Source: a virus (taxonomy: Duplodnaviria; Heunggongvirae; Uroviricota; Caudoviricetes). Taken from it: a stretch of DNA of 5,673 nucleotides. Made by a program: the position numbers and the translations under genes. The notes beneath the pieces are model-generated. The model was not told the DNA's origin and did not search any database. It saw only the letters and a list, made by a program, of their open reading frames with translations. How positions within the stretch are numbered: the first letter of the stretch is position 1; the number at the start of each line of letters is the position of its first letter. Positions 514 through 1,283 of this stretch are shown here, in pieces. The stretch is from the IMG/VR virus record IMGVR_UViG_2541047120_000010, one strand, 5' to 3'.

Positions 514-629
514 ATGCCCTCCATAGTAACCACGAATAAAAAATACAATATGTACTTCTCAAATACAAGTAAAAATACACATTGTGCATGGATGGTTCCA
601 GTACAGAGCGTAATAATAAGGACATGAAA
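514..629. promoter_or_regulatory. Divergent OR-like operator/promoter region (pR toward cro, pRM toward cI)
   Basis: 116-bp AT-rich intergenic region between divergent cro and cI. Three copies of ATACA(A/C) at 543-548, 563-568 and 575-580, each within a partially palindromic stretch: TACAATATGTA 544-554, TACAAGTA 564-571, CACATTGTG 578-586. Tentative pR on the minus strand: -35 TTGTAT (complement of 563-568), 17-nt spacer, -10 TATTTT (complement of 540-545). Promoter hexamers are weak matches; pRM not confidently placed. Confidence 0.5.
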
Positions 630-1283
630 ATGAAATGGTATGAACTGGCTAGATCCAGAATGAAAGAGCTCGGCATAACTCAAGAGAAGTTAGCCGAAGA
701 GCTAGGTATGACGCAGGGTGGAATTGGACACTGGTTGCGCGGATCTCGTCATCCATCTCTTAGTGATATTGGTGTGGTGTTTAAATACCTTGGTATTGAT
801 AACATATCATTCAACCACGACGGGACATTTTCACCTGTTGGCGAATACTCATCGGCCCCAGTTAAAAAACAATATGAGTACCCTGTTTTTTCTCATGTTC
901 AGGCTGGGATGTTCTCTCCAGAACTCAGAACCTTTACCAAAGGTGATGCGGAGAGATTGGTAAGCACAACCAAAAAAGCCAGTGACTCTGCATTCTGGCT
1001 TGAGGTTGAAGGTAACTCAATGACCGCACCAACAGGTTCCAAACCTAGTTTTCCTGACGGGATGTTAATTCTGGTTGACCCTGAGCAAGCTGTTGAGCCC
1101 GGCGATTTCTGCATAGCCAGACTTGGTGGTGATGAATTTACCTTCAAGAAACTGATCAGGGATAGCGGTCAGGTGTTTCTACAACCACTAAACCCGCAAT
1201 ATCCAATGATCCCATGCAATGAGAGTTGTTCCGTTGTGGGGAAAGTTATCGCCAGCCAATGGCCTGAAGAGACGTTTGGGTAA
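630..1283 (+). CDS. cI: CI-type prophage repressor, 217 aa: novel N-terminal HTH domain fused to a lambda-CI-like C-terminal LexA/S24-type autocleavage domain
   Basis: From Y82 (nt ~873) to the end the translation matches the lambda CI C-terminal domain as I remember it ([21 protein letters not shown]…GNSMTAP…FKKLIRD…QWPEETFG), including the Ala-Gly cleavage site and Ser/Lys catalytic residues. The N-terminal 81 aa are unlike lambda and carry an HTH (…[16 protein letters not shown]…). Start chosen at ATG 630 (AAGGA at 618-622, 7-nt spacing); in-frame alternatives at 624 and 588 cannot be excluded. Confidence 0.9.

Follow-up and report, generated by a model that had tools for sequence, protein, structure and literature searches.

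A CI repressor of apparent mosaic origin in the immunity region of an Sp5/VT2-Sakai-type lambdoid prophage

The 5,673-nt stretch of DNA analysed here (hereafter the window) corresponds to the early-left and immunity region of a lambdoid prophage, read in the orientation opposite to the lambda map (Table 1). A cro gene and a gene for a 217-residue CI repressor flank an intergenic control region, and they are followed by genes of unknown function at the position of lambda rexAB, which is absent from the window, and then by N, two further ORFs, cIII, kil, gam and the start of bet. The start of cI was set in agreement with SPN9CC cI and AP000422; an in-frame ATG at 624 is the alternative. ORFs in the minus strand or in alternative frames at cI (455-676, 510-683, 718-963 and 899-1147) were rejected as spurious, since each overlaps a gene that is strongly conserved and none is supported independently. 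An Rfam scan of the whole window gave no RNA family at E <= 0.1. Comparison by blastn with lambda positions 31900-38800 returned five lambda-like segments, and the joint within cI is one among several mosaic joints in the window.

Table 1. Genes, control elements, key codons and lambda-like segments of the window
Feature	Position	Strand	Basis or remark
cII, 3' end	1-~156	-	
cro, 71-aa all-helical HTH_3 Cro, recognition helix TQGAIGHW	298-513	-	Pfam HTH_3, E = 4.2e-12; AP000422 annotates cro
cro-cI intergenic control region	514-629		
Putative PR: -35 TTGTAT (568-563), 17-nt spacer, -10 TATTTT (545-540)	540-568	-	Read from sequence; agrees with 'putative major rightward promoter' in AP000422 and AP005153
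Putative OR1 AATACAATATGTACT, core TACA-N3-TGTA	542-556		Exact TACANNNYGTA match; between PR -35 and -10; AP000422 putative operator
Putative OR2 AATACACATTGTGCA, centre about -42 from the inferred PRM start	574-588		One mismatch to core; AP000422 putative operator
Putative PRM: weak -35 ATGGAT (588-593), 17-nt spacer, -10 TAATAA (611-616)	588-616	+	'Putative maintenance promoter for cI' in AP000422 and AP005153
Putative OR3 AGTACAGAGCGTAAT, over PRM core	600-614		Exact core match; AP000422 putative operator
cI, 217-aa repressor	630-1283	+	
cI N-terminal DNA-binding domain (residues 1-81), recognition helix TQGGIGHW	630-872	+	Pfam HTH_3, E = 1.9e-10, residues 9-56; phage L/ST64T C2-like
cI hinge, cleavage-site region and Peptidase_S24 C-terminal domain (residues 82-217; lambda residues 101-236)	873-1283	+	Peptidase_S24 PF00717, E = 1.1e-28
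Ala92-Gly93 codons (lambda Ala111-Gly112 self-cleavage site, in VQAGMF)	903-908	+	Identity to lambda
Sole amino-acid change of the C-terminal domain, lambda W129 to L: TTG (Leu) for TGG (Trp)	957-959	+	
Ser130 codon (lambda catalytic Ser149)	1017-1019	+	Invariant alignment column; identity to lambda
Lys173 codon (lambda catalytic Lys192)	1146-1148	+	Invariant alignment column; identity to lambda
Genes of unknown function at lambda rexAB position	1284-2600		
Putative OL, three operators	2771-2843		
Putative OL3 AATACAAAGCGTTGT	2771-2785		Motif scan
Putative OL2 AGAACAAATTGTATT	2804-2818		Motif scan
Putative OL1 AGTACATATCGTACT	2829-2843		Motif scan
Putative PL: TTGACC, 17-nt spacer, TACTAT; toward N	2817-2845	+	Promoter scan and sequence
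N	3035-3307	+	Pfam N_peptide, E = 3.4e-32
83-aa ORF	3366-3617	+	
ea10-replacing cassette: 322-aa coiled-coil ORF and variant cIII 5' end	3780-4836	+	Absent from best Sp5-like matches
322-aa coiled-coil ORF	3793-4761	+	phrog_1376, function unknown
cIII, first 17 codons non-lambda, lambda homology from 4837	4786-4956	+	Pfam Lambda_CIII, E = 9e-25; blastn; BLASTP
kil	upstream of gam	+	
gam	5144-5440	+	
bet, start	5456-	+	
Lambda-like segment (lambda 37637-37231)	873-1279		93.4% identity, 27 mismatches in 407 nt, no gaps, E = 1.5e-177
Lambda-like segment	2608-2723		87.5% identity
Lambda-like segment	3341-3371		90.3% identity (31 nt)
Lambda-like segment	3601-3779		97.8% identity
Lambda-like segment, to window end	4837-5673		97.8% identity

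The N-terminal domain of CI (81 residues) was only 21% identical to that of lambda, with no nucleotide similarity to lambda detected by blastn in cI 5' of 873, and Cro gave no BLASTP alignment with lambda Cro at E <= 100. The two DNA-binding proteins are related to each other (35% identity, E = 1e-12), and both carry the signature TQG(G/A)IGHW, where the recognition helix of lambda CI reads QSGVGALF. This agrees with the earlier note, in which the N-terminal domain and Cro had been described as non-lambda proteins with a common recognition helix. None of the features of lambda immunity, namely a lambda-type N-terminal domain and recognition helix, 17-bp operators and a lambda-type Cro, was found in the window. 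In the PDB, Cro matched the N-terminal domain of P22 C2 only marginally (E about 0.009). Apart from identical sequences, tblastn placed the repressors of Salmonella P22-like phages nearest to the N-terminal domain, with local identities of 56% for ST64T/L C2 and about 51% for SPN9CC and epsilon34 cI. Compared domain by domain, CI of the window showed identities of 48% (N-terminal) and 46.5% (C-terminal) to ST64T and of 48% and 80% to SPN9CC, and its C-terminal domain was 99.3% identical to that of lambda.

Homology of cI to lambda starts at the TAT codon of YEYPVF (873) and ends just 5' of the cI stop codon, whereas the sequence flanking 873-1279 on both sides could not be aligned with lambda. 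The mosaic junction, which had been expected just upstream of YEYPVF at about nt 870, is thus placed by nucleotide alignment at 873. From YEYPVF to its end the protein is identical to lambda CI at 135 of 136 residues, and the single replaced residue, Trp129, is present in lambda, HK97, the vB_EcoP-683R2 variant, SPN9CC and ST64T. The description of this domain as lambda-identical therefore holds for the protein but not for the DNA (93.4% identity), in which 28 synonymous differences from the lambda codons, counting the stop codon, stand against 1 non-synonymous difference (dN = 0.003 and dS = 0.39 by the Nei-Gojobori method, dN/dS about 0.008). In lambda CI, Ala111-Gly112 is the established site of self-cleavage. 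The corresponding Ala-Gly pair in the hinge, the helix-turn-helix (HTH) and a Peptidase_S24 domain with its Ser/Lys dyad are all found in CI of the window, as in repressors of the LexA/lambda-cI type. Over its full length, the lambda-type block can be aligned with 8gmu (136 residues) and the cI101-229 constructs 2ho0 and 2hnf of the PDB; these are the lambda fragments 101-236 and 101-229, crystallised as a self-cleavage-competent unit, to which the block exchanged here corresponds. Given its identity at 135 of 136 residues to a self-cleaving lambda fragment, RecA-stimulated self-cleavage of this repressor and induction of the prophage would be expected; the literature on Sp5 induction gives the general mechanism only.

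These comparisons, with similarities well outside the range of chance, support the view that the repressor is a domain mosaic, in which Cro and the operators go with the N-terminal domain. Since the identities of the two domains are incongruent and the nucleotide junction is sharp, the modular exchange proposed in the earlier note is upheld, and exchange at a domain boundary explains the pattern better than uneven divergence would. Vertical descent from a lambda-like ancestor, with the N-terminal domain, Cro and operators diverging fast toward a new immunity while the C-terminal domain stayed frozen, is the alternative; differences in rate do exist, as seen in the very strong purifying selection on the C-terminal domain (dN/dS about 0.008), and the similarity between SPN9CC cI and cI of the window is indeed graded (48% to 80%) with no sharp break. 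We nevertheless regard descent without exchange as very unlikely, because at 873 only a few bases separate sequence that cannot be aligned with lambda from sequence at 93% identity, the alignment ending again at the stop codon, and because dS in the C-terminal domain is only 0.39, far below the saturation upstream. In addition, the lambda N-terminal domain has about 20 extra residues and differs in its N-terminal and linker segments, no homology between the two Cro proteins is detectable, and the N-terminal domain, Cro and operators of the window are clearly nearer to ST64T/L, whose C-terminal domain is only 46.5% identical.

The age of the fusion can be approached from the same alignments. 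If the C-terminal domain were literally that of lambda, acquired in a recent direct exchange, the identity of 135 of 136 residues would follow directly, but 27 nucleotide differences in 407 (dS = 0.39) refute such an exchange, and the lambda-immunity phages in the collection reach no more than about 94.6% nucleotide identity to this domain while hybrid repressor variants at 93-98% identity are widespread; a recent swap is thus hardly credible. The chimera is very probably the product of an old recombination at the domain boundary, as judged from sequence: variants of the whole module at 93% identity exist, which argues for an old fusion, and the lambda-type tail is conserved in protein and not in DNA, which indicates that it is both old and strongly constrained. 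In the vB_EcoP-683R2 variant, which keeps Trp129, lambda/HK97-like and window-like synonymous sites are mixed, and this suggests that recombination within the common C-terminal domain is ongoing. HK97 cI, considered as a possible third N-terminal type on a lambda-type C-terminal domain, was dropped as an example after alignment showed it to be lambda-like over its full length.

The operators proposed for this switch follow a motif other than that of lambda. Scanning of the window for TACANNNYGTA with up to one mismatch gave 13 strand-matches against 4.7 +/- 2.6 expected, a number reached by 1 of 200 shuffled sequences, and 6 of the 7 distinct sites fell in two clusters of about 70 bp each at the two divergent promoter regions. 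The predicted OR sites fall on the operators of the AP000422 annotation, and OL1 takes the same position within the PL spacer as OR1 within that of PR. At OL, as expected for the Sp5 type, three motif sites are found in 2771-2843, and the stretch as a whole is 99.7% identical to Sp5-like phages. Conversely, no lambda-type 17-bp operator (TAYCACYG..RGTGRTA) was found in the window with up to 3 mismatches, and no TACA-N3-YGTA clusters were found at the operators of lambda. Palindromic symmetry is poor in OR2 and OL3, where 6 of 15 positions are self-complementary. The centres of OR1 and OR2 lie 32 bp apart compared to 24 bp in lambda, so that pairwise cooperativity of the lambda style is not guaranteed at these sites. 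The promoter hexamers are weak matches to the consensus, and the promoter scan did not pick up PR or PRM; the assignments of PR, PL and PRM in Table 1 are accordingly putative.

By homology to lambda and by the annotation of near-identical phages, the following mode of action may be proposed. CI dimers and Cro would recognise 15-bp pseudo-palindromes with the pattern A(A/G)TACA-N3-YGTA(C/T)T, three of them between cro and cI and three overlapping PL, and the two proteins would compete for all six in the manner of lambda, 434 and P22. Occupancy of OR1 and OL1 would block PR and PL, that of OR2, whose centre lies near -42 relative to PRM, would activate transcription of cI, and that of OR3 would shut off PRM. 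Upon DNA damage, RecA filaments would trigger self-cleavage at Ala92-Gly93 as in lambda, and in Stx phages this cleavage would turn on the lytic and toxin genes.

The earlier note had also taken the DNA-binding domain and its immunity for a new type, and here it has to be corrected. Positions 250-1300 of the window are 100% identical in nucleotide sequence to Stx phages 1717, YYZ-2008, Stx2a_WGPS4/6 and phi330, and 99.8-99.9% identical to VT2-Sakai (Sp5; AP000422, 99.8%), the Morioka Stx1-converting phage and Stx2 II, Nil2 and the PA phages; the same module is also present in the non-Stx coliphages 2B8, ev207 and PhiR57_1. Among 5,426 complete E. coli genomes, 776 (about one in seven) carry the cro-OR-N-terminal-domain module, 236 of them at no less than 99% identity. 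AP000422 annotates PR, PRM, three operators, a 'CI similar to lambda CI' and a 'Cro similar to bacteriophage L C2'. In the literature on Stx phages Sp5 CI serves as the reference repressor (bioRxiv 10.1101/2024.03.06.583675), and CI of the Sp5 type belongs to CI clade I, the clade nearest to lambda CI (PMC8951638). According to PMC10742460, Fattah et al. 2000 had already described homology to lambda CI that is high in the C-terminal and low in the N-terminal part. The immunity type is thus largely characterised already, as the Sp5/VT2-Sakai type, an outcome that the earlier note had itself named as telling against novelty, and the domain-swapped repressor with non-lambda specificity is real, ordinary and already known, its domain pattern having been published in 2000. 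We are highly confident in reading the region as a cro-PR/OR/PRM-cI switch of an Sp5/VT2-Sakai-type lambdoid prophage, with OL and PL 2.2 kb away and with a repressor of two modules, a 434/P22-like HTH head (residues 1-81) and a lambda-type autoprotease and oligomerisation tail (residues 82-217). Because this repressor type controls induction of the Sp5 family of Shiga-toxin phages it has medical relevance, while its weight as a discovery is small.

Outside the immunity region the window departs from the Sp5 type at a second junction, which had been expected within the early codons of cIII (4786-4835) and was found at 4836/4837. By BLASTP, CIII departs from lambda in its first 17 residues and is identical to it in the other 39. 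Coverage of the window did not exceed 81% in any phage record or complete E. coli genome, and the best Sp5-like matches reach only 81% because they carry ea10 in place of the 322-aa ORF and the variant cIII end. The stretch around this cassette (3760-4860) recurs at 100% identity in phiSTEC801-Stx1a and at 98-99% in HK544, mEp213, mEp043, CUS-3 and IME10, phages whose immunities differ, and the cassette is flanked by lambda-like sequence (3601-3779 and 4837-5673). The simplest reading of the cIII junction is therefore a cassette replacement by homologous recombination in common lambda-like flanks. With a junction-spanning pattern, the arrangement of the 83-aa ORF followed by the 322-aa ORF was found in five IMG/VR contigs, only one of which (L013) also carries the immunity module of the window, at 93% identity; in the genome contigs searched, the pattern had no match.

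Whether this immunity is functionally distinct from that of lambda is a separate question. The sequence makes the term heteroimmune, used in the earlier note, plausible, but a second-hand report contradicts it: according to PMC10742460, Fattah et al. [quoted passage not shown] It could thus be that the phage is not functionally heteroimmune, and that weak mutual operator binding, or mixed oligomers formed through the common C-terminal domain, give partial cross-immunity. Such an explanation would accommodate the report as well as the identity of the C-terminal domains at 135 of 136 residues, and in PMC10742460 lambda CI shifts all six VT2-Sa operators in EMSA (apparent KD 3.7-6.4 uM). We consider it unlikely, since by the values in the same paper this binding is 10-30 times weaker than that of lambda CI to lambda OR1 and OL1 (KD 0.21-0.35 uM) and no better than that to the weakest lambda site, so that it may be near-nonspecific. 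The window moreover holds no lambda-like operator within 3 mismatches, and its CI has the recognition helix TQGGIGHW in place of the QSGVGALF of lambda. Mixed dimers, for their part, would be expected to weaken immunity and not to confer it. Because the C-terminal domains are nearly identical (135 of 136) while the heads differ, mixed oligomers of lambda-type and Sp5-type repressors could form; that co-resident repressors do form mixed dimers or tetramers, which would couple or mutually destabilise the two lysogenic states, with W129L tuning induction, is a speculation to which we give rather little credence. Such oligomers might underlie the lambda/VT2-Sa 'cross-immunity' reported in 2000, and the lineage-specific W129L, which adjoins the cleavage region, might tune induction and hence the output of Shiga toxin.

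Among known systems, the closest is that of Sp5 (VT2-Sakai; AP000422, cI = BAA94122) together with Stx2 II, the Stx1-converting phage, 1717, YYZ-2008, 2851, Nil2 and the PA phages, which have the same cro/OR/cI, operators and promoters, and in which the downstream genes are the same as in the window up to about 3780; the exchange of ea10 for the 322-aa ORF and variant cIII 5' end makes no difference inside 514-1283. Lambda (cI repressor NP_040628; PDB 3bdn, 1f39, 2ho0 and 8gmu) likewise has divergent PR and PRM promoters with three operators and an OL with three more, and it provides the tail of the comparison without its head, recognition helix or operators. In 434 and P22, the repressor N-terminal domain and Cro are paralogues, both of them all-helical HTH domains, and bind the same operators with near-identical recognition helices; their specificity is modular and can be separated from the C-terminal domain. 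The system of the window is built alike, but differs from them in the sequences of the recognition helix and of the operators.

As a DNA-binding module, the CI head, Cro, OR and OL belong with Salmonella phage L/ST64T, with an operator consensus in common. Cro of ST64T is 69% identical to that of the window, ST64T C2 has the recognition helix TQGAIGHW, and TQG(G/A)IGH(W/Y) is conserved across the module. In ST64T the TACA-N3-YGTA core also occurs in clusters of three and three (12 strand-matches versus 2.1 expected), whose centre spacings are close to those of the window (OR: 34 and 26 bp versus 32 and 26 bp; OL: 30 and 25 bp versus 33 and 25 bp), and the motif is found at OR of SPN9CC as well. 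Because the operator consensus is common to both, functional cross-immunity between the Sp5 type of E. coli and L/ST64T of Salmonella, a different host genus, is a possibility, although at 48% identity of the N-terminal domains the two specificities may differ at flanking or central operator positions. The placement with L/ST64T, combined with an old and constrained lambda-type tail, points to cheap tests of cross-talk between prophage repressors.

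No phage record or complete E. coli genome in the two collections searched covered more than 81% of the window, and the combination of the Sp5-type immunity module with the cassette carrying the 322-aa ORF was not found in the phage records or complete E. coli genomes searched. The IMG/VR contig L013 bears the cassette along with a variant of the immunity module at 93%. The 322-aa ORF gave no match in the Pfam search, matched phrog_1376 and phrog_21365 (both annotated as function unknown), and was 98–100% identical in phiSTEC801-Stx1a, HK544, mEp213, CUS-3 and IME10; its label varied by record (‘TolA’, ‘antitoxin’ or hypothetical).

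Mosaic junctions and further features located in the window
Feature	Position (nt)	Strand	Remark
Mosaic junction	near 3780		
Mosaic junction	4836/4837		
322-aa coiled-coil ORF, Ala/Glu/Lys/Arg-rich	3793–4761	+	occupies the ea10 position of lambda and Sp5-like phages
Weak terminator-like hairpin	1601–1615		downstream of cI

When the segment 298–872 was used as the query, some E. coli genomes showed two copies of the immunity module, with matches at no more than two places per genome, which is consistent with two homoimmune prophages residing in a single host. GenBank also holds an Stx1-converting phage and an Stx2 phage with the same immunity region as the window, both from strain Morioka V526.

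Across the hinge and C-terminal domain (CTD) of cI, the only amino-acid difference from lambda was W129L (lambda numbering; codon 957–959), a residue that falls after the cleavage site and before the catalytic core. Because Trp129 is retained in lambda, HK97, the 683R2 variant, SPN9CC and ST64T, Leu129 looks from this comparison like the derived state in the lineage of the window. The dN/dS of 873–1283 against lambda was approximately 0.008 (dN = 0.003, dS = 0.39), and protein conservation of the CTD is unusually strong for a phage regulatory domain common to different immunity types. At its other end, cI has an ATG at 624 and a second one in frame at 630 (624–632), and its start differs among database records (217 or 231 aa). 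Given the inferred PRM start at ~623, AUG 624 would, like its lambda counterpart, be leaderless, and AUG 630 would be served by AAGGA (618–622) on longer transcripts.

The ~500 nt 3′ of cI (1284–1784) contained no convincing ORF and no Rfam match, and were conserved at ~99.7% among Sp5-like phages. Between cI and OL, an isolated seventh near-match to the operator core, TACAATTTGAA (2489–2499), was observed within a 40-aa ORF, and is probably a chance match.

The asymmetric spacing of the operators in the window (542–614 and 2771–2843) was conserved in Salmonella phage ST64T (805–879 and 1617–1686 of the compared sequence, L008): across the two phages, the promoter-proximal and distal pairs were spaced by 32–34 and 26 bp at OR, and by 25 and 30–33 bp at OL, respectively. 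This geometry was kept despite the repressor CTDs of the two phages being only 46.5% identical. Moreover, the start of the PL transcript of the window, ACCATCAGCAGGACGCTGGAAGCCAAA (2846–2876), and its ST64T counterpart, GCCATCAGCAGGACGCTGGTAGCCAAA (L008 1690–1720), were nearly identical; the L/ST64T-like module thus continues beyond OL into the leader preceding N.
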